Assembly: GCA_003345595.1 (NCBI GenBank) | Contig: PRDI01000049.1 | Span: 26,294 to 90,293 of the forward strand | Reading direction: 5' to 3' | Source: Candidatus Thorarchaeota archaeon | GTDB lineage: Archaea > Asgardarchaeota > Thorarchaeia > Thorarchaeales > Thorarchaeaceae | Length of the DNA: 64,000 nt | Shown: positions 837-38,124 of the stretch, piece after piece | Layout of the letters: every line of letters begins with the position of its first letter | Position numbering within the stretch: the first letter of the stretch is position 1 | Notes under the pieces: generated by a model | Told to the model about the DNA's origin: nothing | The model's database searches: none | The model's input: only the letters and a program-made list of their open reading frames with translations | Translations under genes and position numbers: made by a program

Positions 837-3800
837 TCATTTTCCCTCACTTCCTATGACTGCCTGCGCTTCCTCAAATTCGTAGGCCACAAGGTTTGGA
901 GGTTTCGCAGCATCTTCGTTCAGATATTCAGCGGCCGTCAACACGCACACGGTCTGCGTGGACTTGCAGATATTACAGCCAGTACCACCGACAGACTGCA
1001 GAAGTGAATTGAGTTCTTGCTGGCTTGGAAAGACAATGTACGATTTCCTGTCGGCACAAAGGTTATAGTGACCGTGGTTTCGCAGGACCCGGTCACTTGA
1101 TTTAACAAGCTCTGCTTCAAGAGCCGCCACGGCCTTCTCCCTCAGGTCAACAATCTTCGAACAGCTGACGACCCAAAGCCCCTCCTCGAAACCTTGAAAC
1201 ATCTGTTTGTCCTTCACTCTCAATACAACCAGCCTCTCATCGACCAGTAGGCCAGTCACTGCCCGTCTTCCTTCTTCCTCACTCATCGGAATCGATCTGC
1301 TTCTGACAGACTGGGCTGCCGTCGTTTGGATGAAATCCAATAGTGTATTCCACCGGATTTTGCCTCCCGACAATTCCACAAAGTCTTGGATTGTTCCGAA
1401 CCACAGACGTGTCTGAACTGCTGAAACCGAAGACGGAATCTGCTTATGCATCACGCTTCTCAGATGTCCATCGATAGGCCTGTCGGTCACGTCAGCAGTA
1501 ATGTTCTCTCTTCGTCCACTATCATGTTTCTTGCCTCTTTTTAGCTGGGTTTCCACCATGCTGTCAAGAGAACTTGGGAATGCTGACACAACGGTGACGC
1601 AATCGAAGTCTTCACTACTATCCATGAGTTCTCTCAAACGCGCGGCGGCAACGCTTCCTCTTACAACAATGTAGAGCTCAGCAGTCCCATTTCCCAAGTA
1701 ACTCATGCGATGTCGAATCCAGTCAAGCGTGCCCTCTATTGACGAAGCTTTCAAATGCTCAGGTACTATGATTACTGCCTTGTCGTCTATTACAATATCT
1801 GGTTCGTCACTAGATGTCCTTTTAGAAGTGGGCGTATTCTCAAGTGCTTTCATTATGTACTGGAAGATGGCCTCCTTTGCAGCCTCAGATCCTCCTCCTG
1901 GCAGTGTGAACAAGAAGCCTCCAGAAACCAACGGCAGCGATTCCCGTTCGATCGTTCCTAGGCAAATGAGATCGTGGATCAACTCCGCCGTGTCTTCGCT
2001 TGTGATTCGCGGGTCTAGTGTCATTAGAAAATGCTGTAATTCATCATTCGTAGCAGCTTTCTGTGATGCAAGAAACGCAACCACTCTATTTGCCAATTCA
2101 CCGAGCCTATCAAACACTAAGCACTGATGTGCATTTTTCTCAGAAACACTTGAGTCCGTTTCAGCGTCTTCTGACGCACATGCGGGCAGTAACGGATGTT
2201 TCTCCACATGACTGTGTTCATCATCCATGCTGTCCAGAACCGAAGCGGTGCCGTCTGAAGCTTGATCTTCTTGTGATAAGCGAGACTGCGATGTCACATC
2301 GAACCGGGCTGTGGCAATCTCAAAGGTTTCCGTCTGAGGCGTGACAATAAGTGCTCTCCCAACCTTCAGGGTTCTAAGATAGCGCTCCTGCTCCTCGGTG
2401 AGGGACATGAACCTGCCCCCAACCGAGCTGTCGTATGGCAGTCGGAAAGTGATCTTCGTTGATGTGTTCGCCAGAATGTTGGAGGAAACGTTAGGTCTGG
2501 TTGAAACCACGATGACACCTTGTCCGGTCGCTCGCTGTAACATGACCATAGATTCACCAGTGGTGACGTCCGCAGCGGACTGCCGCGTGTAGCTCTCGGG
2601 CACAAGGTTGCTTGCCTCTTCTAGAACGACAACGTGCTCCAGTTCGGGGGTGATACCACGGCGCATCGCACCATCAAAGATGCGCTTCGCAACGAGATTG
2701 TAAAGCAACCGTGCTGCATCCATCCCACCAACCCTTGCGACATATCGTAGGTCGAATATGACTCGCCTGTCAAGCAGAGATGATATCTTGACAGCATTAG
2801 CTCCTCCACTGAGTATCGGTCCAAGCGGTTCACGCGACAGTATCTCAAGGCGATTTACTAATGCATCTCTTGTCAGACTTCCAGTCCGATCCTTGCCCGA
2901 GAGTTCATTGACCGCATCAACCAGCGCGTCCACCGAGCTACCGCGCCTGTTCTCACTAGCAACCTTAAGAACAGACTCCCTTAGCAGCTTCTCCATCGCA
3001 GGGGACAGCTCAGTTGATGTTCCCATCTCCTTAAGCAGTTCTCTGAGGATGGCGAATGTTGTGTATGCATGTCTTTCACCTGTGTCCACTTCTGGGTCCA
3101 TCATGTCCATCACAAAAGAGGGATCTAATCCCGGGCGCAGAATCATGACCTGATCGTCAATATCCACAAGGTCGCTATACTCTGACCCCTTCACATCAAA
3201 AATCCACCATGGCACAACAGTTTTGAGAGTTAGTTCCGCCATCAGGTGTTTCACCAGAGTTGTCTTTCCTGTTCCAGTGGCTCCCATGACAGCAAGATGC
3301 TCTCTTAGCCACTCCTTTCTCAAACCCACTCTGTTAAGTTGTCGTCCTCCGTAGACGGTCCACCCAATGAACAGTTCATTATCGACCAGCTCTCTTGCCG
3401 GGACCGGGAAGCTAGGTGCCTGTATTGCAGAAACAACTGGCACAATTTGCACTGGAGTGTTGACGAACGCGGCAAGTCTGCCTACATGCAGCTTCTGGGG
3501 CCTAAGATGCCGTCTTGTAAGCAGCTTCCAAGCCACACCTGTGCCGACTCTCATGTCCCTTACTAGGACATGACTATCCCCACCCCAGATGGATATAGCA
3601 AGTCCCATCACGCCCTCTTGAGTCATCTTCAGCTGAGGTGCGCTTGCGGCGCTTACAACAACATACACAGTTGAATTGAACCAGCCTTCACTACCCTGCA
3701 CTTCTTCGTACTGATCCAAGAGCGTCTTCTTAGCGGCTTGATCGACCAAGGAGTCCTCTCGCTTGCGTTCTCTCTCGCGGATTGATTTCCATTGCCCCTC

Positions 3801-4655
3801 CATTTTTCTTCTTTCTCTGCCAGGCTTGGCACTGGAGAAGACACAGGTCAAGCTCAAGGAAAACCCCTGCTTAAGCGCGGTGGACAGGAAAGTGCCAACC
3901 TGTGATGACGAAGGCGAAGGTGCTACTCTGGGAGCACCAGTGAATACCACTAGCGATTTCCGGAGGTCGGCCTTTCTGTGTAATCTATTCTCAAGTGTGC
4001 ACTTCTCGACAACGAATCCAGCCGCTTCTTCCAGAGCATCGCCTTTCAATTGATGTAGTTCAAGATTAACTAGAGACGCAAGAAGGATTGCCTCTGTTCT
4101 TGTCGCCTCTCTCCTCAAGACTTGCATCATTTCCTCCAAATGATGACCACTTGTGCTAATGAAGAACCTCAGAAACGGCTCGCCCTTAGCTAGTCCCGCC
4201 TCATATGCCATCGTGACTCCGTGGTCCATGCCTGCGCGCAGCGCCAATAGCATCGCTGTGTTGTACTTGGGTTTACCGTCGGGCCCACACTCCACCGATC
4301 CTGATGCAGATGTGATTTCAAGGCAGCACATTGCAATCAAGCGGTTTCCTAGACCGACCACAAGAAACTCATCTTGCACCGAGGATGATATGCCTCCAAC
4401 AAGGATTCCCAGACATGCCAAGACTGCTCCTGCAGAGATTGGCACTCCACAGACCAGAATCTCTACCAGAAGTTTCGACGGAACAGCGGGCTGTTCGATT
4501 AAACCAGCTAGTGGAAGCATATAGACCACGGTCAGGTACAGGGCACATACCACTGCTCCAAACGCATAGGCTGCTCTGATCCAGTGCCCACAATTCAACA
4601 TGATTCTATCAGGAATGGTTCTCCTCTTGTTTCTGGGTGTGCTAGTGCTCATCAT
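837..4655 (-). CDS. giant (1272 aa) membrane-anchored HerA/VirB4/CedB-like (FtsK-HerA superfamily, DUF87-type) ATPase with a ~420-aa C-terminal extension of unknown function
   Basis: About three N-terminal TM helices. Walker A is AVMGATGTGKTT, directly followed by the DUF87 hallmark WWIFDVKGSEY. Walker B is VVVLEEASNL, followed by a GQGVIVVSTRPNVSSNIL...ITFRLP C-terminal ATPase motif. The last ~420 aa have no recognisable family; a possible winged-helix-like stretch is QHFLMTLDPRITSEDTAELIHDLICLGTIE. Confidence 0.6.
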   Translation of the reverse strand: MMSTSTPRNKRRTIPDRIMLNCGHWIRAAYAFGAVVCALYLTVVYMLPLAGLIEQPAVPSKLLVEILVCGVPISAGAVLACLGILVGGISSSVQDEFLVVGLGNRLIAMCCLEITSASGSVECGPDGKPKYNTAMLLALRAGMDHGVTMAYEAGLAKGEPFLRFFISTSGHHLEEMMQVLRREATRTEAILLASLVNLELHQLKGDALEEAAGFVVEKCTLENRLHRKADLRKSLVVFTGAPRVAPSPSSSQVGTFLSTALKQGFSLSLTCVFSSAKPGRERRKMEGQWKSIRERERKREDSLVDQAAKKTLLDQYEEVQGSEGWFNSTVYVVVSAASAPQLKMTQEGVMGLAISIWGGDSHVLVRDMRVGTGVAWKLLTRRHLRPQKLHVGRLAAFVNTPVQIVPVVSAIQAPSFPVPARELVDNELFIGWTVYGGRQLNRVGLRKEWLREHLAVMGATGTGKTTLVKHLMAELTLKTVVPWWIFDVKGSEYSDLVDIDDQVMILRPGLDPSFVMDMMDPEVDTGERHAYTTFAILRELLKEMGTSTELSPAMEKLLRESVLKVASENRRGSSVDALVDAVNELSGKDRTGSLTRDALVNRLEILSREPLGPILSGGANAVKISSLLDRRVIFDLRYVARVGGMDAARLLYNLVAKRIFDGAMRRGITPELEHVVVLEEASNLVPESYTRQSAADVTTGESMVMLQRATGQGVIVVSTRPNVSSNILANTSTKITFRLPYDSSVGGRFMSLTEEQERYLRTLKVGRALIVTPQTETFEIATARFDVTSQSRLSQEDQASDGTASVLDSMDDEHSHVEKHPLLPACASEDAETDSSVSEKNAHQCLVFDRLGELANRVVAFLASQKAATNDELQHFLMTLDPRITSEDTAELIHDLICLGTIERESLPLVSGGFLFTLPGGGSEAAKEAIFQYIMKALENTPTSKRTSSDEPDIVIDDKAVIIVPEHLKASSIEGTLDWIRHRMSYLGNGTAELYIVVRGSVAAARLRELMDSSEDFDCVTVVSAFPSSLDSMVETQLKRGKKHDSGRRENITADVTDRPIDGHLRSVMHKQIPSSVSAVQTRLWFGTIQDFVELSGGKIRWNTLLDFIQTTAAQSVRSRSIPMSEEEGRRAVTGLLVDERLVVLRVKDKQMFQGFEEGLWVVSCSKIVDLREKAVAALEAELVKSSDRVLRNHGHYNLCADRKSYIVFPSQQELNSLLQSVGGTGCNICKSTQTVCVLTAAEYLNEDAAKPPNLVAYEFEEAQAVIGSEGK

Positions 4656-5055
4656 AGACAGACTTCACGACCGCGCCGCACTGGCGAATCATCACTAATC
4701 TAGGAATCCCAATTCCAAGCACCTTGTGTCAGTGTCTGTGATTTGAACTCCCCCGCGACTTTCGTAGTGTCGGACATTGGTGTTCCGTTTCGAGCGTCGT
4801 AACTGATTGGAGTGACTGTTACATTGGTCACGTGAACAGAGCGAAGGTGTTCATTTGCGGTGGTTCTAGGAGGTTAAAAGACACGCTCCAGTAACGAAAA
4901 AGCAGTGGATTGGATGAGAAATAGAGCCGTTTCCGAACAGGACATTGCCAGTTCAAGCGGCGGGCCATTGATGTCAATCCGATATGTCAAAGGCAAGCCC
5001 CTGACTAAATCTGGACCACGGGGGCAAGATGACGGATTCTCCTGAGGCATGTTCA

Positions 5056-7020
5056 ATGAGGAATGTGCCTGTTCTTATTGGAGCCGCAATTGCCCTGATG
5101 CTCTTTATGTTTGCGGCTTGCACAGAAACAGTATCTGCAGAAGAAACGCCTATCTGTCGGGGCAGTGTCGCAACTATCACTATTACCTTGCTCCAGAACG
5201 GCACATATGGAAACCCGGTTTCTAATCAGCCTGTGGAGTTCTTCGATCAGACCCTTGATGTGTTCTTGGGCTTGGTCCTGACTGATGTGGACGGCCGCGC
5301 TCAGTTCGAATGGTCCCTACCAGCAGACCATCCCCTTGGGCCGACCGTGATCAATGCCACCTACCGTGGCAACGAAACTCTGGCACTCGCTCCGTCTTTC
5401 CAATGGACATCACTTACTGTACTCTCCTCCACGAGAATGGATATTCAAGTTGAACGAAGCACTGTGTTTCCCGGGGAAGTAGTACCATTCACAGTCCTGC
5501 TCTTGAACGACATGAATCTTCCACTGCCGTACGCACAACTCACTGTGTTTTGTAACAGCGTGCCAATCACATCGAGGGCTACAAACTCATCTGGCTGGGC
5601 CCGGTTCACTGTTCAGTGCAATGACTCATGGGCTCGTTTGGGAGAGAATGAAATCCGGGTTGCCTATGAACAAAACCTAGTAGTCTTCAATGAGGCGGTA
5701 GCAGAGTCATTCATGGTAACGGTCGAGCAAGTTTCCACAAGTGTCGAAGTGACAAAACCTCCTCTGGGGTCGTACGGACTGAACGACACTCTACGTACAG
5801 ACTTGTTTCTGAGAGCCGACGATGGAGCACTGCCCGGGGCCAGACTTCAAGTTGCTTTGGACGGCGTTTCTCTTGCTGCTGTCTTGACTGATGACTCTGG
5901 TGTGGCACATCTATGTCTAGTAATAGACGGCATATTCACTCTAGGCCCTCATAGGTTAACTTTCGAGTATCCGGGGAATTCTCGATATGCATCATGTTCA
6001 CATGATATTTCCATTAGCGTCCTAAGCAGTGCAAACATTCGAATCATTCTTCAAGGACCCGTCATTGTCAACACAGACAGCAACATCACTATTGAGATCA
6101 GGGATCTGTTCCACCGTCCGATACAGAATGCTACCATCATTCTGCGTGACCTAGTTAGCAATGAAACATTCGCCGGTGCAGTCCCTATTGGCACGACCTC
6201 TGTGAGTTTCAGTTTCCATATTGTAGGAAGAACCGGAGCCAGAAGCTTCCTCATCAGCATTGTTGGGAACGAGTATGTCACGAACAGGACCAGTGCATTC
6301 AGCACTCTTGTCTGGTCTCGTCCTGACTTAATACTGGTCAGAAGCAACATCAGAGGGTATGCTTCCCCCAGTCAGCAGATAATGCTCGAAGTCAGGCTGT
6401 ACGACTCCCAGATGGCCTATACTGACACACTTGTGGAATCCTGGATTGACAATACGACAGCTGTTTCCCATTCATTCACGAATAGCTCTGGCTTCGCGAT
6501 TGTTGAACTCAAAGCGCCACAGGATGAAGGTCTGGTCGATACATGGATTGTCTACAGCGGCAATCTGACTGTTTTTAGAATGTCTAATACCTTACACTAC
6601 ACTTTCACTGTCAGCAGGATAGTCCCGCTGGCGATTGAACTGCACCACTACACAGTAATCATGCCCCTGCTACAGCTCGAGGTTGTCTTGATGGCCTGCG
6701 CTCTCAATGGATCCTTGCTAGAGGGGGTGACAATAAACTATGAATGGCTCTCCATTCGAGGAAGCACAGAGAGTACGCATGATGGCTTGTCCCAACTGTA
6801 CCTGCCAGTACCCGGGTTTCCGGGTTCGTTCATTCTCTCTTATTGGACCGAATCCTCCTCGTACACACTCTCATGTAGTGGGCACTTCGTCATCAATCTA
6901 AATGGAAGTGAAGTTGCAGCAGCTCAAGGTGTCGGCATCACTGGCATGGCAGCAAGCATATGTGTTTCTCTAACATTGGCCGCAATACCAATCATCAGAA
7001 AGAGGTACCTACTGGACTAG
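5056..7020 (+). CDS. secreted or cell-surface protein with repeated beta-rich (Ig/CARDB-like) domains, many N-glycosylation sequons and a C-terminal TM anchor
   Basis: N-terminal signal peptide MRNVPVLIGAAIALMLFMFAACTETVSA. More than 25 N-x-S/T sequons (NATY, NETL, NSSG, NDTL and others). Repeated ~90-aa segments. C-terminus is a hydrophobic helix GMAASICVSLTLAAIPII followed by RKRY. Confidence 0.6.
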   Translation: MRNVPVLIGAAIALMLFMFAACTETVSAEETPICRGSVATITITLLQNGTYGNPVSNQPVEFFDQTLDVFLGLVLTDVDGRAQFEWSLPADHPLGPTVINATYRGNETLALAPSFQWTSLTVLSSTRMDIQVERSTVFPGEVVPFTVLLLNDMNLPLPYAQLTVFCNSVPITSRATNSSGWARFTVQCNDSWARLGENEIRVAYEQNLVVFNEAVAESFMVTVEQVSTSVEVTKPPLGSYGLNDTLRTDLFLRADDGALPGARLQVALDGVSLAAVLTDDSGVAHLCLVIDGIFTLGPHRLTFEYPGNSRYASCSHDISISVLSSANIRIILQGPVIVNTDSNITIEIRDLFHRPIQNATIILRDLVSNETFAGAVPIGTTSVSFSFHIVGRTGARSFLISIVGNEYVTNRTSAFSTLVWSRPDLILVRSNIRGYASPSQQIMLEVRLYDSQMAYTDTLVESWIDNTTAVSHSFTNSSGFAIVELKAPQDEGLVDTWIVYSGNLTVFRMSNTLHYTFTVSRIVPLAIELHHYTVIMPLLQLEVVLMACALNGSLLEGVTINYEWLSIRGSTESTHDGLSQLYLPVPGFPGSFILSYWTESSSYTLSCSGHFVINLNGSEVAAAQGVGITGMAASICVSLTLAAIPIIRKRYLLD

Positions 7021-7028
7021 AATCCCAA

Positions 7029-7138
7029 TGGTGCTCCGGCCGGGATTTGAACCCGGGTCTGGGGATCGAGAGTCCCCAATGCTGGGCCGGACTACACTCG
7101 GCCGCACAACGAATCTCACTCGGTGCGACTACCGGAGC
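7029..7138 (-). tRNA. tRNA-Glu (anticodon CUC) with a ~32-nt non-canonical intron in the D-arm region
   Basis: Reverse complement reads GCUCCGGUAG[UCGCACCGAGUGAGAUUCGUUGUGCGGCCGAG]UGUAGUCCGGCCCAGCAUUGGGGACUCUCGAUCCCCAGACCCGGGUUCAAAUCCCGGCCGGAGCACCA. Acceptor stem GCUCCGG/CCGGAGC, anticodon arm GGGGA-CUCUCGA-UCCCC, T-arm CCGGG-UUCAAAU-CCCGG and an encoded CCA are all present. The exons match the archaeal tRNA-Glu consensus GCUCCGGUGGUGUAGUCCGGCC. Confidence 0.6.
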
Positions 7139-7398
7139 TTGGGCTGTGCCAGCCCGGAGCGGGCATTCACCCTCTACGCAGCAAATAAGGCTTTCTCTGT
7201 AAAGTCACGATATTTCCAATCTGAATCGGATGTTGGCCTGGAACTCTGGTCTGTCACTCTGCGAATCATCGATAGCATTGGTGTCGGAGCACTGCCCACA
7301 TCTCCAATGCGTTTCACCCTAGCTTGTTTACTTTCCAAGAAAACCGATTGTATTCAAACATTCAAGCTGTTTCGACCTGCTTACTGCAACTGGGCGGA

Positions 7399-7605
7399 CT
7401 ATGGACCGAATAGCTGGGTGAGACTACTCCAGCTGTCTTGGAGTAGCTGAAGCAGACTGTTCACAACACCTTGTGCCCATCCTGTTGCTTCAAGGATGAC
7501 TGCTATTATGATGGATACTGTGACCACAGCTAGACCAAGAAGCAGGCTCTCCTCTACCAAGGGTCCTCCAATCTCATTGTCTTTCAGCTTAGTCTGCTTC
7601 GTCAT
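7399..7605 (-). CDS. small Flp/class-III-signal-peptide-like pilin candidate (68 aa from the internal Met)
   Basis: MTKQTKLKDNEIGG|PLVEESLLLGLAVVTVSIIIAVILEATG has a charged N-terminus, a Gly, a Glu four to five residues after the Gly, and a ~20-aa hydrophobic helix. This is the Flp/type IV prepilin architecture. It lies immediately downstream of a secretion ATPase. Confidence 0.4.
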   Translation of the reverse strand: MTKQTKLKDNEIGGPLVEESLLLGLAVVTVSIIIAVILEATGWAQGVVNSLLQLLQDSWSSLTQLFGP

Positions 7606-7766
7606 TTCATGAACCTGTCCAAGGGTTCTCTTCGAGGCTATATTAAGTCCCCATGTTCTTGACGCGGTAATAGCACATCTCTCAGCAGAGCTCAACATAC
7701 TCTATCAGGACGTCCAGCACGCCAAAGACTGGCCAACCGTGTGCAAGAACGACATTCGATGCTCTC

Positions 7767-9527
7767 TTAGCCCCGATACAGAAACGGATGACCATTCTTC
7801 CATAGCCTCTCCCCCATGAACATGGTAATGTCCATTTCAGACCCGCCAATCTCGTTTTCAAGTTCATGAAGTAGCCTCTCGTAGGCGGGCACATGACTTT
7901 GAATCCCTTGTTCCCGGGAATGAAGCATGAATGCTCCATCCTCAGCCCACTTCGGGATTCCAGACTTAGCCGGCTGATTCGATAAGACTACGTTCAGCCC
8001 GGCGAATCTCAGCAGGCCATCGACAACCTGTCTTCTCACTTCAACAACCTCTTTGACTCGTCGTGTGGCATTTCCAGGTGTGGGCCGCTCCATAGTGATT
8101 ATGAGGTCTATGAGTGCGACACTCGATTTATCAATGCCATGATCTGATGTCCAGCGAGAAATGAGACTCGATGCAGAATCACTGTGACAGGTCTGTATTG
8201 TATGAAGACCCGCCGCAATTGCCTGAAACAAAGCACGGCTGTGTTCTGCTGTCTGAATCTCTCCAAGAATCAGATAATCAGGTGACCTGTGAAGGCTTTT
8301 TACGATCTCCTTGCTCTTGTCGAATCCGGGCTCGTTCTCGTCAACTGGATCGACCCTGATTCTTACTTGGTGACACCCTTTGATAGACCTACTTTCGACG
8401 GCATCTTCGATGTAGACTCTTCTCCAGCTTCGCGGCGTAGTCATATCAAGAGCATTCAGCAGAGTAGTCTTCCCGGATCCCGGACCACCTGTTATCGTAA
8501 TGTTGAACCTAGCAGACACGGCAAGCAACAGTATCGCCGCAGCCTCCATACTGAGCGTGCCATTGCGAACCAAGTCCGTTATCGAATATGGGCTCCTACG
8601 GGCCCTACGCATCTCAAGATGTAGTCCGTCTGGGCTCAAGGGTGGCAGGCTCAGAGAGAATCTCAGAACTGCATCACAGACCAACATCTCTGTCTTGAGC
8701 GATGGGTTTCTCCGATCGAGATGGAAATTGCTCTCGGCCCTCACGAGCGTGACGATACGATCAACATCATGCTCATTGACGGTCGTTGTTGAACAACACC
8801 TTCCGAAACGTCGATGGTCAAAGTAAATCTGACTCTCGGGCCGGTCTAGGTAAACCTCCTCGACTTCGTCATCGAGCAGAATTGGAAGGAAGCATCTGAG
8901 GGCTGTTGATCGATGTGCTACGATTTCTGCGATTCTAGTCCTAGTGATAATGCCTACCTCTGGCAGTGAGTGCGAGATCTTCGCTGCAACAGATTCAGAG
9001 ATTCGCCTGAGTCTTATGTTGATGTTTTCTCTGGACAAATGCGGTGCATCATCGAACAGACTCCTGTCGGCACTCAATTCATTCAGCAATGCCATCTCTA
9101 GACGAGTCTTAACTAGCGGGACCGTTTCAAGAAGCAGACCTGAACTGGAGCCATCTTCACGGAAGACTGACAGGTAAGGCCCAACAAGATATGCTTCAGA
9201 TAACAGATGAACCGTGTCAAAGAAACGCTGGTCCTCAACGTAGACCGATTCCCAACCCTCCGCATGCCATGGCGGTCCGTTGAGCGGTTTTCCATCATGT
9301 CTTCCAAGATGAATCAGGCCCTTCCCAGGTTCGACTACTAGAATCTTAGTCTTTTGCCCGTCATCAGAACTCGTCAAGGCTAACCGTTTACATGGCCCCT
9401 GCTCTGCATATTCACACTCTGTGCACCCTGTCTTGGGGCATAGGATAACATTGACCAAGTGTTCTATCACACCAATCGGACTCCACAGCATCAGATGCGG
9501 GCCGGATTCACAAGCCAGAAGCTGCAA
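7767..9527 (-). CDS. type II/IV secretion-system ATPase (VirB11/FlaI/TadA-CpaF/PilB family)
   Basis: Walker A is ITITGGPGSGKTT. Asp box is RRVYIEDAVE. Walker B is DYLILGEIQTAEH. His box is TIQTCHSDSA. A ~300-aa N-terminal domain is typical of the family. Confidence 0.75.
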   Translation of the reverse strand: MQLLACESGPHLMLWSPIGVIEHLVNVILCPKTGCTECEYAEQGPCKRLALTSSDDGQKTKILVVEPGKGLIHLGRHDGKPLNGPPWHAEGWESVYVEDQRFFDTVHLLSEAYLVGPYLSVFREDGSSSGLLLETVPLVKTRLEMALLNELSADRSLFDDAPHLSRENINIRLRRISESVAAKISHSLPEVGIITRTRIAEIVAHRSTALRCFLPILLDDEVEEVYLDRPESQIYFDHRRFGRCCSTTTVNEHDVDRIVTLVRAESNFHLDRRNPSLKTEMLVCDAVLRFSLSLPPLSPDGLHLEMRRARRSPYSITDLVRNGTLSMEAAAILLLAVSARFNITITGGPGSGKTTLLNALDMTTPRSWRRVYIEDAVESRSIKGCHQVRIRVDPVDENEPGFDKSKEIVKSLHRSPDYLILGEIQTAEHSRALFQAIAAGLHTIQTCHSDSASSLISRWTSDHGIDKSSVALIDLIITMERPTPGNATRRVKEVVEVRRQVVDGLLRFAGLNVVLSNQPAKSGIPKWAEDGAFMLHSREQGIQSHVPAYERLLHELENEIGGSEMDITMFMGERLWKNGHPFLYRG

Positions 9528-9660: not shown

Positions 9661-10719
9661 TCAAGCAGCCAATTCTGGGACCCTCATGGTGCATTCATCC
9701 AAGGTTTTCTTTATCATCCCGTAGTGGTCACGGATGCTATACTCTGCTACTTCTGTCGCCTTGGAAGCCAGTTTCTGAGTCAATACAGAATGTCTTCCAT
9801 ACTCAATAGCTACCATCCGGTCACTAGCATAAGCAACCGAAACAACAAATATGAACGGATTTCGACCACCTCTCCTTGAGGCCGGTATGAAGTCGAGGAC
9901 TACGAGCATTTTGTTTCTCATGGCATTCTCATATTCCTTCGAATCCCACCCCCTCAACTTTGCTTTCCCAACAACCTGCGGGCTATTCATGAGCATCGAC
10001 AACACCCTAGGGATGTAATCTTCAGGCTGTCTCAAATCTGGTGCATGACCTGTCACAGACTTGAGCCGCATCGCTTCTCGAACCATTGCACGCACATTCA
10101 CTCTGTGTCCGCACTTCTCAAAGACATCAGCTATTTCCTCCAGAGTTATCGGAGCTTCGTCCTTGAACTCACGTACTGCCATCAGCAGACATACGGCCAT
10201 TAGGAGAATGTTGTTGGTGACCCTCTCTTTTGCGTCCGAGATGACTTTCTTGTAGAGATACGCAGTTCGATCGCGTACCTGCTCGTTCAACATCAGTAGC
10301 TTCGAAACGTGATTGAGTGTTCTGAGTGCTCTGTACTTTGCTTCACTCCTCCCGATTCTTATACGTGCACTATACACAGTCTTCAGTCGTTTGAATCTCT
10401 TCTGTGCATGGCCGGACAATGCTTGGCCATGAGCATCTCGGAAATACGTGTCCTTGTGAAAACCCATGTAGCTTCCAAGCCCGTCCACAATATGCATTCT
10501 GTTTCCCAATGAAACATACATGGCTGCATCAGGAGTTTCACCATGTTGTTCCTCCCCCATCTGGTAAGTTGGATGTACGTACTCCCTAGAAACCACAAGC
10601 CCACATTCGGCGCATACTATGTGCCCTTGACTGGTCACCAGTTGCCCCGAACAGTCCGGACAGGACCATGAAGAGGTTACGAGCTGTTCACCTGTTTCAT
10701 CAACCAATGGCTGTACCAC
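9661..10719 (-). CDS. tfb: transcription initiation factor IIB (TFB)
   Basis: N-terminal Zn-ribbon CPDCSGQ...CAECG followed by two cyclin-like repeats; length 352 aa. Confidence 0.9.
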   Translation of the reverse strand: MVQPLVDETGEQLVTSSWSCPDCSGQLVTSQGHIVCAECGLVVSREYVHPTYQMGEEQHGETPDAAMYVSLGNRMHIVDGLGSYMGFHKDTYFRDAHGQALSGHAQKRFKRLKTVYSARIRIGRSEAKYRALRTLNHVSKLLMLNEQVRDRTAYLYKKVISDAKERVTNNILLMAVCLLMAVREFKDEAPITLEEIADVFEKCGHRVNVRAMVREAMRLKSVTGHAPDLRQPEDYIPRVLSMLMNSPQVVGKAKLRGWDSKEYENAMRNKMLVVLDFIPASRRGGRNPFIFVVSVAYASDRMVAIEYGRHSVLTQKLASKATEVAEYSIRDHYGMIKKTLDECTMRVPELAA

Positions 10720-10886: not shown

Positions 10887-11252
10887 TCACGTTATCACGA
10901 TATAGAATGTATTGGATGAGAAAGTCTTGCTCTGTGAAGATGTTGGCTTAGCAATCCCGAGCACAACTCTAAGGCCCCCCAACGATCCCAGTATCTCAAG
11001 CCCTTTGGTTTCAGTTCTCCGGAAGACGGTGCCCTCACCATACAGTCTCGCCTGTTCCCCCTTAGGAATAGCCTTGGAGTCAATGACCACATCAACGTGG
11101 TCTTTGGCATTAAACCTACTGGAAAGCGCTTCTGGAAGTTCAATCGTGAGTGTTGCACCATCACTCTTGGACGACACTTTCAAGAGCTTGAGTCTCTTAG
11201 TGTCCGTTTCCTTGATGGATTCGATGATGGCATCCTTGAATCTGACACCCAT
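10887..11252 (-). CDS. hypothetical small protein (121 aa, beta-rich) immediately upstream of tfb
   Basis: ORF with plausible coding character. No family recognised by eye. Confidence 0.35.
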   Translation of the reverse strand: MGVRFKDAIIESIKETDTKRLKLLKVSSKSDGATLTIELPEALSSRFNAKDHVDVVIDSKAIPKGEQARLYGEGTVFRRTETKGLEILGSLGGLRVVLGIAKPTSSQSKTFSSNTFYIVIT

Positions 11253-11375
11253 AACTCTAACACATCCAGCAGACTGAGGCTTCGCGGTGAGCGGCCGAAG
11301 GCATTGAATTAAACCTGTCGCTGCTCTCTTGTGCCGTTTTTTAGGCGTTGCAGCGACAGTTATTCGGTGGGCCTG

Positions 11376-14066
11376 ATGCTTCCGAAACTGCTAGCCATAT
11401 TGTTCCTGTCTGTGGCGATGGCATCTTACTTCGTAGCACCAGTTTCGGCCTTCTATTTCGAACTCTACTACTTCGAAACAGACAAGATGGTGTATGAAGT
11501 TGGCGAAACAATCGAGATGGTCGCCAAGGTCGCTGCTGAGTTCAGCGAAACTGGATCATGTGATCTCTATTTTGCTGTTGTGAGAAGCAACGACTCTGTA
11601 ACTGTCTTCTACGACGGCTACAGCATCCCCTCCGAATCCAGTTCTCGCCTTCTGAGTTCGCCTTATGTCATAGTGCCCCATGACATCACCCCGGGAGTCG
11701 TTGGTGCGAAAGTACAGGTGGTCTTTAACATCGTCGTATACGATGAGTACACCCAAGGCAATCAAACGCAGATTGAGATTGATGTGAAAAGAGGTCACCT
11801 AACGACGTTTCCAGAAAGCCCAATGTCGGTTGAGTTCGGAACCAACGCGACAGTCACACTGAGGATTGCAAGCCCACACAACAACAACGTAGTTCTATCC
11901 AACGAGCCCGTTTCGCTCTATGTCCAGAGTCCAGACAGTTTGCCAGTGTTTCAAACAGAAGCATTGACAGACTCGCAAGGTCTGGTTCAATTGAATTGGA
12001 CCGAATCCATGGGCCCACCAGGGGTATACAATCTGACTGTCAATGGAGCAGGCACTGCTTCATTCCTACCGTTTTCCGAATCACTACAAGTCACTGTGCA
12101 ACCTGGAGCATCGAGCCTGGAAGTACGGACCGTCACCGAACAGGTCTACTGCCAATCCTACGACTGTACTCAGATGGAGTTCGCAGAAGTCACTGTTGAA
12201 CACCTGAACACATCACAGTCCCCAATCCATGATAGCGAACTGAATTGGAATGCATCATTTGGCTGCGGATCCATGAACAATCTAGGGAATGGAACCTATA
12301 GTGCACTAATACCTTTCAGCACCGGGCCCGGACTGTATGCCATTGACCTCACAGCAACAAATGCCGCTTATCAGACTGCCGTAAGCACAGTTGTCATACG
12401 GGCAAATAGCAGACCACTATTAGCGAATGTCACACTGCTCTCGGAGGTGGTATGCGGCACGCTAATCCGAATTCTGGTGGTAATCACTGACGGATTGAGC
12501 AGAACCCCAGTTGGTTCACTCCCATTCACACTCGGTATTACAGCAAGTAATGAAGACCTGACTGTAGTGGAGGGCGCCACCAACTCTTCGGGCGCTATAC
12601 AAATCACAGCATACGTACCAACCACATCTTGGGGTAGTGGGTTTCTATCTTTGATTGTCCAGAACACAAGCTGCTACAGCGATTTGTCTGAAACACTACC
12701 GATTGATGTCCTATTTCATCCTAGCGTGCTAAGCCAAGCAAATACCCCGATCATTATCAACTACAATGCAGAAGTCCGCCTGCTCCTGTCAGACCCCATT
12801 GGATTGCCGGTCTTCGGTGCAGTAGTCGAGCTACATACACCCGACAACGTCACAGTGGTCATGAACTCCACGAGCTACGACGGTACCACGCTCCTCCGCT
12901 GGCGAGTTCCTCCGGGAATTGGCCTTGGAAACCAGACTCATCTGTTGGTGATACACAGAAACGATGGAAGGTTCATCAGTCATACAACGAGATACTTGGT
13001 ATTCATGGTTCTTTGCCCACTGTTTCTTGAGTCCTCCAATAGCACAGTGCAAGTCGTACGGGGGCACAATGTATCCATTTGGCTCACGATGGTATCGGGC
13101 GGGCCTCAGTGCCAACTGATCAATCTTACGCTCAGAAGCAATGACAGTTCATTGACAACTTCGGCTGTGATTCCCACTGACACGCACGTGGAAATCACAC
13201 TGAAGATGAGCTCAAACATTGCTCCAGGCCCATACGAGGTCTATGCAGAAGTCCTGTCCGGGCCATTTGTCATACTGAACCAGTCTCAAGTCGAAGTCAT
13301 TGTTATTGGCACTCTACAAGCGGGTTTCGCCATTGTTTCAGCATTCTATGCTGAAGCCCTCATAGTTGATCCTATTGTGAGAGATGACACTGATAGCACA
13401 CCAGACTCGGTATCGGCAACCCTATATTTCAGTGATTGCGGAATTCAAATCCTCTTGGATCCGGCCCTTCCTCGTATGCCATGGTCGATTCCACTGCCCC
13501 TTCAAGTGGCCCCCGGAGCTCACAACGTTACAATCGAAATCAGCCGTCCTTGGTTTGTCGCAGCACGCAGGTCTATTCTCGTGTTTGTATGGATGCGAAC
13601 AAGAATTGTGATCTCAGTATCGACCTACAGACCAAACAAGACAGGTTCTGACCCCGGGCTGGAACTGGTTCAGGTCGCTGACAACACATCGAGTAGCTCT
13701 CCCGGTTCAATCATAAGCCCTCCGCCAATCTTGTTCAATGGCACAACTTCAACCGTGTCGCCTACTGCACGAGAAACCTCTCTTACGAGCTGCCCAAGGT
13801 TCAGCTCTGGCACCAACAACCTGTCAACTGTGTCAGCAAACTGCCTTACCTCAGAATCAGGAAATGGCCATAGAGTTCTAAGCCTCAAGGAACGAATCGA
13901 CAGGGGACTCGCTCTGTTCATGACCACTTCTTCCACAGTCCTCGAAGTACTTCCGAAGGAAACCACCCCCCACTCTGCTGTTTGCGGCCCTGAGAATACG
14001 ACATCAGTCAGAAGGGCTCTCTCCCTCAGAATCTTGTCTGCGAGTCTTCTCACGAGCCTGTCGTGA
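11376..14066 (+). CDS. large secreted glycoprotein-like surface protein; the 3' end is unresolved because the ORF lacks a stop codon before the convergent korA and reads antisense through it as S/T-rich low complexity
   Basis: Signal peptide MLPKLLAILFLSVAMASYFVAPVSA. Many N-x-S/T sequons and repeated beta-rich domains. After about nt 13650 the frame overlaps korA on the opposite strand and is probably not genuine coding, or reflects a frameshift or assembly error. Confidence 0.5.
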   Translation: MLPKLLAILFLSVAMASYFVAPVSAFYFELYYFETDKMVYEVGETIEMVAKVAAEFSETGSCDLYFAVVRSNDSVTVFYDGYSIPSESSSRLLSSPYVIVPHDITPGVVGAKVQVVFNIVVYDEYTQGNQTQIEIDVKRGHLTTFPESPMSVEFGTNATVTLRIASPHNNNVVLSNEPVSLYVQSPDSLPVFQTEALTDSQGLVQLNWTESMGPPGVYNLTVNGAGTASFLPFSESLQVTVQPGASSLEVRTVTEQVYCQSYDCTQMEFAEVTVEHLNTSQSPIHDSELNWNASFGCGSMNNLGNGTYSALIPFSTGPGLYAIDLTATNAAYQTAVSTVVIRANSRPLLANVTLLSEVVCGTLIRILVVITDGLSRTPVGSLPFTLGITASNEDLTVVEGATNSSGAIQITAYVPTTSWGSGFLSLIVQNTSCYSDLSETLPIDVLFHPSVLSQANTPIIINYNAEVRLLLSDPIGLPVFGAVVELHTPDNVTVVMNSTSYDGTTLLRWRVPPGIGLGNQTHLLVIHRNDGRFISHTTRYLVFMVLCPLFLESSNSTVQVVRGHNVSIWLTMVSGGPQCQLINLTLRSNDSSLTTSAVIPTDTHVEITLKMSSNIAPGPYEVYAEVLSGPFVILNQSQVEVIVIGTLQAGFAIVSAFYAEALIVDPIVRDDTDSTPDSVSATLYFSDCGIQILLDPALPRMPWSIPLPLQVAPGAHNVTIEISRPWFVAARRSILVFVWMRTRIVISVSTYRPNKTGSDPGLELVQVADNTSSSSPGSIISPPPILFNGTTSTVSPTARETSLTSCPRFSSGTNNLSTVSANCLTSESGNGHRVLSLKERIDRGLALFMTTSSTVLEVLPKETTPHSAVCGPENTTSVRRALSLRILSASLLTSLS

Positions 14067-14803
14067 GTTTCGGGGTCCGAAGTCATCCTCAGCCCATTAT
14101 TGTCGTGGGTTGAACCGGTCACGAGCAGATTGTGGCCATCACCAAATCTTGGCATTATTGCATGTCCGCTCGCATCAATGCCGCCAAATGACGCTTCTCC
14201 TGCTCGTGCGAATCTTCTCTGCACTGTCACATCTCTGTTTCCTGTAATAACAACCCTCTCTCGAGAGTGAGCGACAATCTCGTCGGACAGCAGTATCGTT
14301 GGATGCCTCAGGCGTTCAGACAGGAGGAAGGCCCTCAGGGTCAGCTCATAAGTCTCTTCTGCTGAGCTCGGAGCAAGCACTATGCTTTCGTAGTCACCAT
14401 GAGACCCCCATCTGGACTGCATGACGTCTCCTTGGGCAGCCTTAGTTGCTTGCCCTGTGCTCGGGCCTGCTCTCTGAACGTCCACAATGACACAAGGTGT
14501 TTCAGTCATGACGGCATAGCCTATGCCTTCCTGCATAAGACTGAACCCCGGTCCCGAGGTAGCAGTCATTGAAAGAAGGCCACCCCACGAGCTACCAATG
14601 ATGGCGGAGATTGCCCCTATCTCGTCTTCCATCTGGAGGTACGTGCCCCCCACCAGTGGTAACCTTTCAGCCATGATTTCAGCAATTTCAGATGCAGGTG
14701 TGATTGGATAGCCAGCAAAGAAGCGGCAGCCCGCAGCTATGGCCGCTTCAGCACAAGCTTGATTCCCTTGCCAGAAGTGAACCGATCTGTCTTGACCAGA
14801 CAT
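13670..14803 (-). CDS. korA: 2-oxoacid:ferredoxin oxidoreductase alpha subunit (KorA/PorA-type)
   Basis: GNQACAEAAIAAGCRFFAGYPITPASEI, TATSGPGFSLMQEGIGYA, VIVDVQRAGPSTGQAT, QGDVMQSRWGSHGD and the conserved C-terminal L(R)TLWPFP region. No beta-subunit gene lies adjacent. Confidence 0.85.
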   Translation of the reverse strand: MSGQDRSVHFWQGNQACAEAAIAAGCRFFAGYPITPASEIAEIMAERLPLVGGTYLQMEDEIGAISAIIGSSWGGLLSMTATSGPGFSLMQEGIGYAVMTETPCVIVDVQRAGPSTGQATKAAQGDVMQSRWGSHGDYESIVLAPSSAEETYELTLRAFLLSERLRHPTILLSDEIVAHSRERVVITGNRDVTVQRRFARAGEASFGGIDASGHAIMPRFGDGHNLLVTGSTHDNNGLRMTSDPETHDRLVRRLADKILRERALLTDVVFSGPQTAEWGVVSFGSTSRTVEEVVMNRASPLSIRSLRLRTLWPFPDSEVRQFADTVDRLLVPELNLGQLVREVSRAVGDTVEVVPLNKIGGGLMIEPGELLDVLSAT

Positions 14804-15061: not shown

Positions 15062-15168
15062 GCGGCCATGGTCTAGTATGGTCTAGGACGGAAGCCTCCC
15101 AAGCTTCCAACCCGAGACGGTTTCGCTGACCGCGAACTGCGGGAGTTCAAATCCCGGTGGCCGCACCA
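15062..15168 (+). tRNA. tRNA-Gly (anticodon CCC)-like gene, ~107 nt, probably with a non-canonical intron on the 3' side of the anticodon arm
   Basis: GCGGCCA...UGGCCGCACCA acceptor with encoded CCA. D-arm is GUCU-AGUAUGGUCUA-GGAC. Anticodon arm GAAGC-CUCCCAA-GCUUC is perfect. The T-loop GUUCAAAUCC is present but about 30 extra nt lie between the anticodon arm and the T-stem, and the T-stem pairing is irregular. A TATA-like TTTTATCA sits about 30 bp upstream. Confidence 0.5.
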
Positions 15169-15385: not shown

Positions 15386-16579
15386 ATGTCTCGGGACTAT
15401 GTTGAGGACGAGCTGAGCCGACACAGTGTGTTCAAGTCAGAGCAATTCCTGTCTGTCGACTATGTCCCTGAAACACTTCCTCATCGTGAATTGGAGCTGA
15501 GAACTCTGGCTCAGAGCTTCAAGACTCTCATAACGTCACCCGGTCGGACGAGTCAGAAATTCATCGTCGAGGGGCCTGTTGGCACTGGAAAGACAGCCGT
15601 GACCAAGAGGTTCTCAGAGCAGATGGTCCAAGCGGCCAACAGAAGAGGCATTCGGTTGCACAAGCTGCATATCAACTGCCGAGTGAACAAGACCACCAAT
15701 CTGATCTACATGAAGATGCTTCGTGAGTTCAAGCCGATGTTTCCTCGTAGAGGACATTCGCCTGCCGAAATCCTCCAAATGGTCTTAGAAGTCCTCGACT
15801 CCGAAGACAAGTATCTCCTATTGATTATGGATGAGCTTGACTATTTCATTAGACAGAGAGGGGCAGACATACTCTATGACCTCACACGACTTATGGACGA
15901 CCGACTCAATGCCCCACAAAGAATCTCAATGATAGGAGTAGGGCGCGACATCTCAGTTGACGAGAGCATGTTTGATCATAGTATCCTCAGCACCCTCCAG
16001 CGCAACATCTTGCATTTCGAAAAATACAATTCTGAGGCGCTGCACGACATTCTGAGAGACCGAGTTGTGTTGGCATTTGAACCCAACACAGTCATGGACG
16101 AGGCTCTCCAAGTCATATCCGACATAGCATCTGAGCGTGGTGATGCAAGGTATGCTATTGAGTTATTGTGGCGTGCAGGTAAGCAAGCCGACCGCGAGGG
16201 CTCTAAGGCAGTGTATCCTGACTACGTACGCCAGGCCAAGGCCGACACACACCCTGAGCTGAGGAAGGAGGTCTTCACGTCTCTCCCGCTACAGACCAAA
16301 CTTCTCTTGCTGGCTGCGAGCAGGCATCTGAAAGAGATTCGTAGTGCTTATGCGACGATAGGAGAGGTGGAGGACATGTATCACACAGTGTGCGAAGAAT
16401 ATGGACAGGAGCCAAGAGCACACACCCAAGTCTGGCAGTGGGTCCAAGACCTAAGCGCTCATGGAATAGTCGACACAAAGCGGTCTGGACAAGGGCAGAG
16501 GGGTCAGACTACGCTCATAGGTCTGTCGGACGTTCCTGCAGACATGCTCGAACGCTTCCTTGTAGATCTGCTCAAGTGA
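15386..16579 (+). CDS. orc1: Orc1/Cdc6 replication initiator (AAA+ plus winged helix), paralog 1
   Basis: Walker A IVEGPVGTGKTAVTKRF. Walker B LLLIMDELD. Sensor regions and a C-terminal winged-helix domain. Confidence 0.9.
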   Translation: MSRDYVEDELSRHSVFKSEQFLSVDYVPETLPHRELELRTLAQSFKTLITSPGRTSQKFIVEGPVGTGKTAVTKRFSEQMVQAANRRGIRLHKLHINCRVNKTTNLIYMKMLREFKPMFPRRGHSPAEILQMVLEVLDSEDKYLLLIMDELDYFIRQRGADILYDLTRLMDDRLNAPQRISMIGVGRDISVDESMFDHSILSTLQRNILHFEKYNSEALHDILRDRVVLAFEPNTVMDEALQVISDIASERGDARYAIELLWRAGKQADREGSKAVYPDYVRQAKADTHPELRKEVFTSLPLQTKLLLLAASRHLKEIRSAYATIGEVEDMYHTVCEEYGQEPRAHTQVWQWVQDLSAHGIVDTKRSGQGQRGQTTLIGLSDVPADMLERFLVDLLK

Positions 16580-16603
16580 CTTTAGGAGGATGCTCGAATC
16601 ATT

Positions 16604-38118: not shown

Positions 38119-38124
38119 GATCTG

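Follow-up and report, generated by a model that had tools for sequence, protein, structure and literature searches.

Do Asgard archaea possess a surface machine akin to pili or to type IV secretion systems (T4SS), and if so, what would it move across the membrane? This question is raised by a locus at positions 837-9527 of a 64,000-nucleotide (nt) stretch of a Candidatus Thorarchaeota genome (contig PRDI01000049.1 of assembly GCA_003345595.1, positions 26,294 to 90,293 of the forward strand; this entire stretch is hereinafter the window, with coordinates counted from its first letter). The first-pass annotation of this DNA, produced from the letters alone, placed there a VirB4/HerA-class membrane ATPase, an anchored surface protein, an intron-containing tRNA-Glu, a Flp-like peptide and a VirB11-like ATPase. 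All five elements are present, with essentially the same boundaries. Our analysis suggests that they belong to an Asgard-wide cell-envelope machine that combines a pilus module with a T4SS-like translocase, by analogy with the Ups and Ced systems of Sulfolobales, an interpretation to which we assign a probability of roughly 45%. All the evidence is computational, and the assignments of the small proteins draw on architecture and weak matches. The elements under study, numbers of amino acids (aa) included, are these:

837-4655, minus strand: VirB4-like membrane ATPase (hereinafter VirB4L), 1272 aa
4656-5028: divergent intergenic region of 373 nt between the VirB4L gene and the next one; presumed shared promoter, judging by the gene coordinates
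5029-7020, plus strand: immunoglobulin (Ig)-like surface protein of 663 aa, rich in sequons; signal-like segment at the N-terminus, anchor at the C-terminus
7029-7138, minus strand: tRNA-Glu(CUC) with an encoded CCA and a non-canonical D-arm intron of ~32 nt
7399-7605, minus strand: 68-aa peptide, candidate Flp-like pilin or membrane subunit of the machine
7767-9527, minus strand: secretion ATPase of the FlaI/TadA/VirB11 class (hereinafter T2SSE ATPase, after the Pfam family), 586 aa if counted from the TTG at 9527
9661-10719, minus strand: TFB/TFIIB-like paralog of 352 aa, divergent; candidate for a transcription factor dedicated to the module

A VirB4-like ATPase with a predicted two-module tail

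Judging by sequence, VirB4L can be assigned to the HerA/FtsK superfamily and to no narrower family. Residues 442-603 match the Pfam DUF87/HerA central domain (E 1e-12), with the Walker A motif GATGTGKT at residue 458 and the Walker B motif VVVLEEA at residue 675, and four hydrophobic segments lie within residues 26-115, so that the original call of a membrane-anchored ATPase of the VirB4/HerA class holds. The best match among the NCBIfam models is CedD (NF053655), with 40.9 bits against a cut-off of 600; the scores with the CedB model NF041017 (14.5 bits, cut-off 700), the VirB4 model TIGR00929 (14.6 bits, cut-off 643), the HerA equivalog NF040937 (24.6 bits, cut-off 800) and Pfam FtsK_SpoIIIE (16.7 bits, cut-off 24) are lower still. 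As a single sequence, VirB4L matches none of the sequences in the PDB, and as a profile, it matches only the P-loop regions of HerA-like chains, not VirB4.

The predicted structure is more specific. With an AlphaFold model of residues 116-1272 (predicted local distance difference test (pLDDT) 69) as the query, the best Foldseek match is the full-length TrwK/VirB4 of the R388 T4SS (E 5e-16, ~760 aligned columns), and the alignment includes the VirB4 N-terminal domain. In this model-based comparison, TrwK/VirB4 ranks ahead of DndH-C, HerA (7e-11) and TrwB (8e-9), and no FtsK structure appears among the top 50 matches. The predicted organisation of the protein is as follows:

residues 26-115 (4311-4580): transmembrane (TM) anchor
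residues 116-427 (3375-4310): region similar to the VirB4 N-terminal domain
residues 428-781 (2313-3374): P-loop motor of the HerA/VirB4 type
residues 792-850: disordered linker
1905-2108: winged helix 1
1530-1796: restriction endonuclease (REase)-like alpha/beta module 1
1164-1433: winged helix 2
849-1163: REase-like module 2, with four conserved cysteines

Thus, in the model, the C-terminal tail consists of two repeats of a winged helix followed by an REase-like fold, and the last REase-like module is marked by three invariant cysteines and one nearly invariant cysteine. Because the PD-(D/E)xK residues are not conserved, we read the REase-like modules as predicted binding modules rather than as active nucleases.

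One candidate assignment could be rejected, namely, that VirB4L is an ordinary paralog of HerA. The window encodes a canonical pair elsewhere:

36958-38118, plus strand: canonical NurA, 386 aa
38125-39636, plus strand: canonical HerA, 503 aa (DUF87 E 3e-27)

Because this separate NurA-HerA pair exists at 36958-39636, and given the VirB4-like fold, VirB4L is not the ordinary HerA of this organism. Directly downstream of the pair, Mre11 and Rad50 were not recognised; the next large open reading frame (ORF; 40830-42941) encodes a DUF460 protein.

Together, the N-terminal domain and the motor of VirB4L define a wider family. A search of 1.84 billion representative proteins retrieved members bearing Hel-, Loki-, Baldr-, Odin-, Hermod-, Hod-, Njord- and Ran-archaeal names, and a scan of contigs for VirB4-like loci with a narrowed alignment yielded 15 loci. 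Genomes of Helarchaeota hold at least two VirB4-like paralogs each (L012 and L014 in one metagenome-assembled genome (MAG), L013 and L015 in another). Here and below, the lineage names of the contigs are database labels and should be read with caution.

A divergent secretion ATPase and a candidate pilin-like peptide

By its sequence matches, the second ATPase is a divergent enzyme of the FlaI/TadA/VirB11 class, in agreement with the class originally proposed for it. The match to Pfam T2SSE (PF00437) has an E value of 2e-22 (79.6 bits, above the cut-off of 24.9), and the Walker A motif GPGSGKT is found at residue 348. Among the PDB sequences, the best matches are to afGspE (7e-25), FlaI (4e-19) and CpaF (7e-18), and the match to VirB11 is far weaker (3e-4). 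The NCBIfam models for the TadA family (3e-29), FlaI (6e-24), TrbB (3e-23) and VirB11 (2e-18) are all hit far under the family cut-offs; the VirB11 model TIGR02788, for example, scores 66.8 bits against a cut-off of 250, which limits the assignment to the superfamily level (Pfam T2SSE). The gene models in the databases start at the GTG at 9470 and yield a protein of 567 aa, which appears to be the likelier start. A conserved N-terminal motif of four cysteines is encoded at 9414-9440. At least 120 homologs of the T2SSE ATPase were found, and the Helarchaeota ortholog is 33% identical (E 2e-70). A precomputed Pfam assignment, PF27713 (UCP018868), is attached to nearly all the orthologs (P0121 onward).

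The gene for the 68-aa peptide lies 161 nt downstream of the T2SSE ATPase gene, on the same strand. The mechanically delimited ORF encodes 99 aa (7399-7698), and the homologs are called at 68-69 aa. The peptide begins with a short polar segment, continues with the invariant motif GGPLVEE and a single TM helix, and ends in an amphipathic helix without charged residues; according to the positive-inside rule, the N-terminus is predicted to lie inside and the C-terminus outside, which is the topology of prepilins. A profile search yielded 420 homologs at E <= 0.01, of which the best 120 are 65-100% identical, with only Thorarchaeota-like proteins among the matches listed. No other product of the locus is as conserved as the peptide: across Thorarchaeota, its identity is mostly 77-88%, compared with ~50% for both ATPases, and this difference fits a tightly packed structural subunit. 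The C-terminal helix, presumed to be extracellular, is conserved as well, an unusual property for a pilin exposed at the surface.

The first-pass annotation called this peptide Flp/prepilin-like. The N-terminal motif is Flp-like; no pilin model is matched, and the peptide has no family match in Pfam (even at E 10), NCBIfam or the PDB. In a profile alignment with Caulobacter PilA (hhalign), G13 falls on the glycine at position -1 and E18 on Glu5, but this match is weak (E 0.0015, probability 16%). We therefore use "Flp-like" for the peptide as a lead only.

Linkage of the gene families across Asgard archaea

Each protein of the locus has at least 120 listed homologs, nearly all of them full-length, and therefore, the genes are not chance ORFs. 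The window belongs to a Thorarchaeota-like Asgard archaeon, as the names attached to the homologs of its proteins (Thorarchaeota, Promethearchaeota, Sifarchaeia) indicate. Another four contigs, either Thorarchaeota- or Sifarchaeia-like, keep this order of genes (POR, surface protein, 121-aa protein, TFB-like protein, T2SSE ATPase, 68-aa peptide, tRNA, Ig-like protein, large ATPase, IPK, S10 and GlmS), even though the proteins are only 45-60% identical. On the points that the first-pass annotation itself named as able to refute it, the large ATPase is not an ordinary HerA, the peptide is strongly conserved, and the synteny is present in relatives. Synteny inside Thorarchaeota, however, proves little because the housekeeping neighbours are equally conserved.

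Outside this group, we examined 10 kb on each side of the homologs in a small number of genomes. In two Helarchaeota contigs (L007 and L012), the module genes are packed into ~15 kb, in the order TFB paralog, VirB4-like ATPase, peptide, ArsR-type regulator, Roadblock protein, 302-aa protein, Arf/Ras-like GTPase, surface protein, 77-aa protein and T2SSE ATPase, with no IPK, S10, POR or Cdc6 gene nearby. The VirB4-like gene lies directly downstream of the TFB paralog, the peptide homolog is 62 aa long (KDKRGSPVVEEGLLIG...), the 77-aa protein is hydrophobic, and the surface protein is anchored. A third Helarchaeota contig (L015), likewise free of IPK, S10, POR and Cdc6 genes, encodes the surface protein, the 77-aa protein, the T2SSE ATPase, a TFB-like protein and a VirB4-like protein in a different order, without the peptide, the helix-turn-helix regulator and the Roadblock-GTPase triad. 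Because the same families co-occur in Helarchaeota, in two orders and away from the housekeeping neighbours of Thorarchaeota, the module genes appear to belong together. Pairwise adjacencies also link these families in contigs labelled Loki-, Odin-, Baldr-, Hermod- and Ran-archaeota. Homologs of the peptide are encoded close to VirB4-like genes, at distances of 0.5-2.3 kb, in contigs of Helarchaeota and Lokiarchaeota, including ~500 nt in Loki L028 and ~2 kb in Hel L018, with no T2SSE gene near either of the latter two.

The TFB paralog provides a connection between the two ATPases. The tfb gene flanking the locus, which had been taken for a core gene, encodes instead a very divergent paralog that travels with the module: its neighbour in Thorarchaeota is the T2SSE gene, but in Helarchaeota it stands next to the VirB4-like gene. 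The protein is 42% identical (E 1e-90) to its L007 counterpart, which is encoded immediately before the VirB4-like gene, and homologs are also present in L012 and L015. Its Pfam matches are weak (TFIIB 1e-5, Zn_Ribbon_TF 4e-4), and no PDB sequence is matched at E <= 0.01; many TFB and TFIIB structures exist.

The Ig-like protein belongs to the class of glycosylated, anchored surface proteins to which it had been assigned, except that the start chosen for it, 5056, is an in-frame ATG inside the ORF that begins at 5029. It shows weak Pfam matches to Big_3_5, Big_1 and MG domains and contains 15 N-x-S/T sequons, or 2.3 per 100 aa, compared with 0.4-0.5 in the two ATPases. An Ig-like homolog (E 3e-19) adjoins the VirB4-like gene in L011, where the divergent arrangement recurs; the VirB4-like protein of that contig is 27% identical to VirB4L. 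Further homologs are located within 10 kb of VirB4-like genes in Odin and Hermod contigs.

Two components that a machine of this kind might contain were detected in the relatives. The first is a membrane platform. A partner of the FlaJ/TadC type had been reported as missing, which is true of the window; in the Helarchaeota contig L015, however, the T2SSE gene is followed after 4 nt by a gene for a 503-aa polytopic protein with alternating soluble and membrane segments. Two of the three relatives of this protein weakly match Pfam T2SSF (PilC/FlaJ/TadC; best E 0.006), and the protein itself has no significant match among the PDB sequences. In two Odin/Baldr-type contigs (L020 and L027), an Ig-like gene is directly followed by a gene for a T2SSF-like polytopic protein of ~490 aa, with a stop/start overlap in L020, where this gene lies ~6.6 kb from the VirB4-like gene. 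A metagenome scan with the platform-like protein yielded one locus.

The second is a small protein of 80 aa with two predicted hydrophobic helices connected by a short basic GK(R/Q) loop. Its gene immediately precedes VirB4-like genes in contigs labelled Baldr, Odin and Ran; in Odin and Hermod contigs, it is also found 5-7 kb away. The Thorarchaeota form is encoded by an 82-aa gene after GlmS on the same contig as the window, ~2.6 kb beyond window coordinate 1 and ~3.4 kb from the VirB4-like gene. One of the five members of this family matches TrbC/VirB2, weakly (E 0.065), and no PDB sequence is matched. Representatives of this candidate are located as follows:

L005, 17209-17457: two-TM protein of 80-82 aa, VirB2/CedA1-like candidate
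L020, 9451-9696: the same
L029, 8058-8297: the same

In Helarchaeota and Lokiarchaeota contigs, the VirB4-like gene also stands beside a gene for a B12-binding radical SAM enzyme (L007, 14179-15729, minus strand; L012, 6326-7873; L014; L015; L028, 6985-8526). Where a peptide gene was found (L007, L012, L028), the distance between it and the radical SAM gene is ~1 kb or less. No homolog of this enzyme is encoded in the Thorarchaeota window. Two database labels appear to be wrong: peptide P0446, with the label Odinarchaeota, shares 85% identity with the Thorarchaeota form, and contig P0527/L009 (GCA_014730275), with the label Lokiarchaeota, has the full Thorarchaeota-type synteny; both are probably taxonomic mislabels of MAGs.

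Genomic setting and neighbouring genes

Is the locus part of the chromosome or of a mobile element? The GC content is flat (0.49-0.51 over the locus and 0.49-0.54 over the window). On the 3' side, the window encodes Orc1/Cdc6, both RFC subunits, GINS, MCM and Hel308 and, farther along, the small subunit of PolD and a second Cdc6. The region is core chromosome, probably close to an origin, and the locus is vertically inherited and chromosomal rather than mobile. A viral-contig scan with a single protein returned nothing, but the search patterns were too specific to be informative. The other relevant features of the window are the following:

10887-11252, minus strand: 121-aa protein with a sub-threshold RpoG/Rpb8-like match; module membership uncertain
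11331-14066, plus strand: second large sequon-rich surface protein, 911-aa ORF (896 aa in the database model); module membership uncertain
15062-15165, plus strand: over-long tRNA gene
15386-25082 and 54536-63612: replication/repair supercluster (Orc1/Cdc6, large and small RFC subunits, GINS, MCM, Hel308; small subunit of PolD, second Orc1/Cdc6)
16598-16885, plus strand: ArsR-type winged-helix regulator, 96 aa, beside Orc1/Cdc6; possible distant member of the module
32684-35161, plus strand: Roadblock/LC7 protein (320 aa), unannotated 306-aa protein and Arf/Ras-like small GTPase; possible regulatory satellite
50884-51002, plus strand: over-long tRNA gene
51095-51190, plus strand: over-long tRNA gene

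Parts of this replication neighbourhood, with the VirB4-like gene included, are kept across several Asgard lineages; in Baldr contigs, the homologs of supercluster ORFs map onto annotated PCNA and primase genes, which there flank the VirB4-like gene.

Conservation of the 121-aa protein in this position is limited to Thorarchaeota-like loci. The 911-aa ORF and the 3' end of the POR gene (13670-14803, minus strand) share ~400 nt, and the last ~130 residues of the ORF are of low complexity; the homologs in relatives are 551-893 aa long, and the real 3' end of the surface-protein gene is in doubt. A homolog of the ArsR-type regulator lies inside the compact Helarchaeota cluster. The Roadblock-GTPase triad is kept in contigs labelled Thor-, Hel-, Odin- and Hermod-archaeota, always 3-28 kb from a VirB4-like gene (~8 kb in the Odin and Hermod contigs); in the relatives, it occupies 17565-20083 in L007 and 1-2116 in L023 and L024, and in Helarchaeota, it is inserted between the peptide and the T2SSE genes. 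The triad recalls the MglA/MglB switch, so that, by analogy, a similar regulatory role is possible. MglA and MglB control type IV pili in Myxococcus, and MglA/MglB-like pairs are already known in Thorarchaeota.

The tRNA-Glu gene inside the locus was described as containing an intron, and this is correct. ARAGORN (7033-7107) and Rfam (7040-7098) detect just the 3' part of the gene; the acceptor stem pairs only when all 110 nt (7029-7138) are included, and the D-arm is broken by a block of ~32 nt after approximately position 10. The same exons are found around a different intron at the same place in a relative (L001, ~7673-7784) with proteins ~51% identical to those of the window. Because of the stem closure and these shared exons, we consider the intron to be real. 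All four tRNA genes detected in the window exceed the standard length and contain introns or insertions; three of the four were missed by ARAGORN, and at least two of the insertions are non-canonical, in the D-arm of tRNA-Glu and on the side of the variable region in the genes at 50884 and 51095. The tRNA-Glu is probably a bystander rather than a functional part of the module. It was also regarded as a potential integration hotspot; this does not hold, given the flat GC content, the absence from the window of a second copy of the tRNA 3' end and of long direct repeats, the conservation of the tRNA in place, and the replication-gene setting.

A proposed machine and its relation to known systems

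If the interpretation preferred here is correct, an Asgard-wide machine composed of a pilus module and a T4SS-like translocase, then, in the first module, the FlaI/TadA-class hexameric ATPase, probably with a divergent platform protein of the PilC/FlaJ type, would pull the 68-aa peptide out of the membrane; the peptide would polymerise into a thin filament, and the sequon-rich, Ig-like anchored proteins could serve as adhesins or surface partners. In the second module, VirB4L, anchored by its own N-terminal helices, would pair with the 80-aa two-helix VirB2-like protein, and its winged-helix/REase-like tail would bind nucleic acid that the motor would pump across the membrane. The divergent TFB paralog (9661-10719) might switch the entire set on, in the manner of TFB3, which activates ups and ced in Sulfolobales. 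The role of TFB3 in the response to UV and DNA damage is the subject of papers in the reference list of PMC11868833. The first-pass annotation proposed a DNA-transfer or pilus locus; the family-level assignments stand, and the genes appear to form one set. The analysis shows the families, their predicted folds, their conservation and their linkage across lineages; that a filament forms, that the two ATPases are paired, that DNA is the cargo and that the TFB paralog acts as regulator is what we infer beyond this.

The closest parallel is to the Ced and Ted systems of Thermoproteota (CedA, CedA1, CedA2, CedB and CedD in Sulfolobales; TedA, TedB and TedC in Thermoproteales), DNA importers of a simplified T4SS-like type, which likewise are chromosomal, non-mobile loci. 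In Sulfolobales, the Ced importer and a separate type IV pilus, Ups, cooperate in DNA exchange (PMC11868833). CedD of Saccharolobus consists of a membrane anchor, a VirB4-like N-terminal domain and a motor (PMC11868833), and the same plan, with a HerA/VirB4-type motor, is seen in VirB4L; the 80-aa candidate is comparable to CedA1/VirB2 as a small two-helix membrane protein. Unlike these systems, VirB4L is about twice as long, with a tail of two winged-helix and REase-like modules for which neither CedB nor CedD has a reported counterpart; a channel of the CedA/VirB6 type was not identified, there being no polytopic protein in the window, and the one in the relatives resembles T2SSF; a T2SSE-class ATPase and a Flp-like one-helix peptide are encoded in the same cluster; and the organisms are Asgard archaea rather than Thermoproteota.

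The similarity to bacterial T4SS (VirB/VirD4) consists in the presence of a VirB4-class ATPase and an ATPase of the VirB11 superfamily and, in the relatives, of a possible VirB2-like hairpin protein encoded next to the VirB4-like gene. In contrast to those systems, there is no VirB6, VirB8-10, VirD4 or relaxase, and the locus is not on a mobile element; as regards VirB6, VirD4 and relaxase, no ORF in the window contains three or more TM segments beyond the listed genes, and no such Pfam match was obtained among the scanned neighbours. Furthermore, the second ATPase is closer to FlaI/GspE and CpaF/TadA (PDB E values from 7e-25 to 7e-18) than to VirB11 (3e-4), and its Helarchaeota counterpart is paired with a T2SSF-like protein.

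With the type IV filaments (archaeal pili, the archaellum with FlaI/FlaJ, Tad/Flp), the locus shares the T2SSE ATPase and, in the relatives, the T2SSF-like partner. The adjacent co-directional gene for a hydrophobic peptide of ~55 aa mature size, with a G-x4-E motif in the putative Flp register, recalls Tad/Flp, and the nearby surface proteins recall many archaeal type IV pilus loci (PMC4858521). The differences are the absence of a platform protein and a prepilin peptidase from the window, the N-terminal four-cysteine domain of the ATPase, and a peptide that matches no pilin model and in one subtype lacks the glycine. A 2026 census finds type IV filament systems widespread in archaea "except the Asgardarchaeota", which places the present set outside the current type IV filament models. 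Judging by scores, the set is not a member of any curated family tested.

Several observations weigh against the combined machine. None of the family models for VirB4, CedB, CedD, HerA, FlaI, VirB11 and TadA comes near its cut-off, no significant family match was obtained for the small proteins, and the AlphaFold models are of moderate confidence (pLDDT 69 and 78; pTM 0.39 and 0.52). The 64-kb window encodes no prepilin peptidase (no candidate polytopic protein for a class III signal peptidase was found in it), VirB6/CedA-like channel, relaxase or coupling protein, and the T2SSF-like platform is absent both from the window and from within 10 kb of the Thorarchaeota-like loci. The peptide subtype of Loki L028 and Hel L018 has F/H-F-S-P-I-T-E-E, without a glycine at the putative cleavage site. 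The invariant columns of the REase-like modules do not include the usual PD-(D/E)xK catalytic residues, and winged helices can bind proteins too. The VirB4-like genes in Baldr, Odin, Hermod and Loki contigs have no T2SSE gene within 10 kb, and the two ATPases need not work together. Finally, some of the adjacency may reflect the inherited order of the ancient Cdc6/RFC/PCNA/primase region rather than function.

Alternative explanations

The last two points are the starting point of the alternative that survives best, in which two unrelated systems, a minimal filament system with its platform encoded elsewhere and VirB4L as an FtsK-like housekeeping DNA pump for chromosome segregation or clearance at division, are neighbours by inherited order. 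VirB4L shares its P-loop superfamily with both HerA and FtsK/SpoIIIE, and the succession of TM anchor, linker, motor and C-terminal winged helices parallels FtsK; the gene is strongly and, apparently, vertically conserved in a setting of replication genes not only in Thorarchaeota but also in Baldr (PCNA, primase, GINS), Hermod (RFC), and Loki and Ran contigs (Cdc6-HTH); and, in contigs labelled Baldr, Odin, Hermod and Loki, the gene occurs with no T2SSE gene closer than 10 kb. However, the fold is closer to full-length VirB4, including the N-terminal domain, than to FtsK, which is missing from the top 50 structural matches and whose Pfam model is not reached (16.7 bits against 24). The presence of at least two paralogs in Helarchaeota genomes would be unusual for a segregation pump, the VirB4-like genes recurrently adjoin those for small membrane proteins, the pilin-like peptide and surface proteins, and the TFB paralog, located by the T2SSE gene in Thorarchaeota or by the VirB4-like gene in Helarchaeota, ties both halves together. 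On balance, we regard the FtsK-like pump as somewhat unlikely.

Could the machine be a single one, but without DNA transfer? Under this scenario, it would be a surface filament, export or adhesion apparatus in which VirB4L assembles small membrane subunits or exports the Ig-like glycoproteins, and the winged-helix modules mediate protein contacts or autoregulation. In bacterial T4SS, VirB4 is primarily the motor of pilus biogenesis, which favours such a role, as do the recurrent adjacency of VirB4-like genes to those for large, sequon-rich anchored proteins, the lack of conserved REase catalytic residues and the absence of a relaxase or nuclease in the window. Two tandem winged-helix and REase-like modules on a translocase-class motor are, nevertheless, more typical of nucleic acid handling, and the closest characterised archaeal relatives, CedB, CedD and TedB, move DNA (PMC11868833); thus, this scenario appears quite improbable.

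The REase-like modules could also suggest antivirus defence of the HerA-plus-nuclease type, fused into one membrane protein. On the ATPase domain, PADLOC detects mad8 (E 1.5e-14) as well as several models of HerA, and a distant homolog (L010) is encoded next to an OLD-family nuclease and a restriction-modification pair. The PADLOC and PHROGs matches, however, cover the generic P-loop region only, the catalytic residues are not conserved, the GC content is flat, and the gene is highly conserved throughout the Thorarchaeota-like contigs, in a core replication region rather than in a variable island, which makes defence very unlikely. The HerA-associated antiphage systems, with HerA and an active Sir2 or DUF4297 nuclease effector in a variable defence island, were rejected as well because the matches are generic P-loop ones, the REase-like modules lack conserved catalytic residues and the setting is core.

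A conjugative or integrative element inserted at tRNA-Glu, which the tRNA gene in the middle of the locus and the joint presence of VirB4-class and VirB11-class ATPases might bring to mind, has a negligible probability, given the GC content of 0.49-0.51, the same as in the rest of the window, the single-copy tRNA 3' end without long direct repeats, the absence of an integrase or relaxase, and the retention of the tRNA, the intron position and the whole gene order in contigs with proteins just ~45-51% identical.

Implications for Asgard biology

The first-pass annotation suggested that the system may be undescribed; literature searches on secretion ATPases and pili of Asgard archaea and Thorarchaeota turned up no description of this gene set, nor of a T4SS- or Ced-like system in Asgard archaea. 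The combined pilus and translocase machine would carry the logic of Ups plus Ced beyond Sulfolobales, into a second lineage of archaea, with a VirB4-class motor that is fused to domains of the nucleic acid-binding type. In a bolder and, in our estimate, unlikely version, it would be an ancestral Asgard apparatus for cell contact and DNA exchange, in which a filament module and a Ced-like translocase with a DNA-binding tail are switched on by the TFB paralog, beside the replication genes, and, in some lineages, are flanked by an MglA/MglB-like GTPase switch.

The module is kept across Thorarchaeota, and parts of it are found in contigs labelled Hel-, Loki-, Odin-, Baldr-, Hermod-, Hod-, Njord- and Ran-archaeota, which makes available testable candidates, namely, the 68-aa filament subunit, the two ATPases, the TFB paralog and the winged-helix tail. 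The attachment of Asgard archaea to their partners, their surface structures and gene exchange bear on models of syntrophy and eukaryogenesis. If the bolder version is true, the closest prokaryotic relatives of eukaryotes would possess a conjugation- or mating-like machine.

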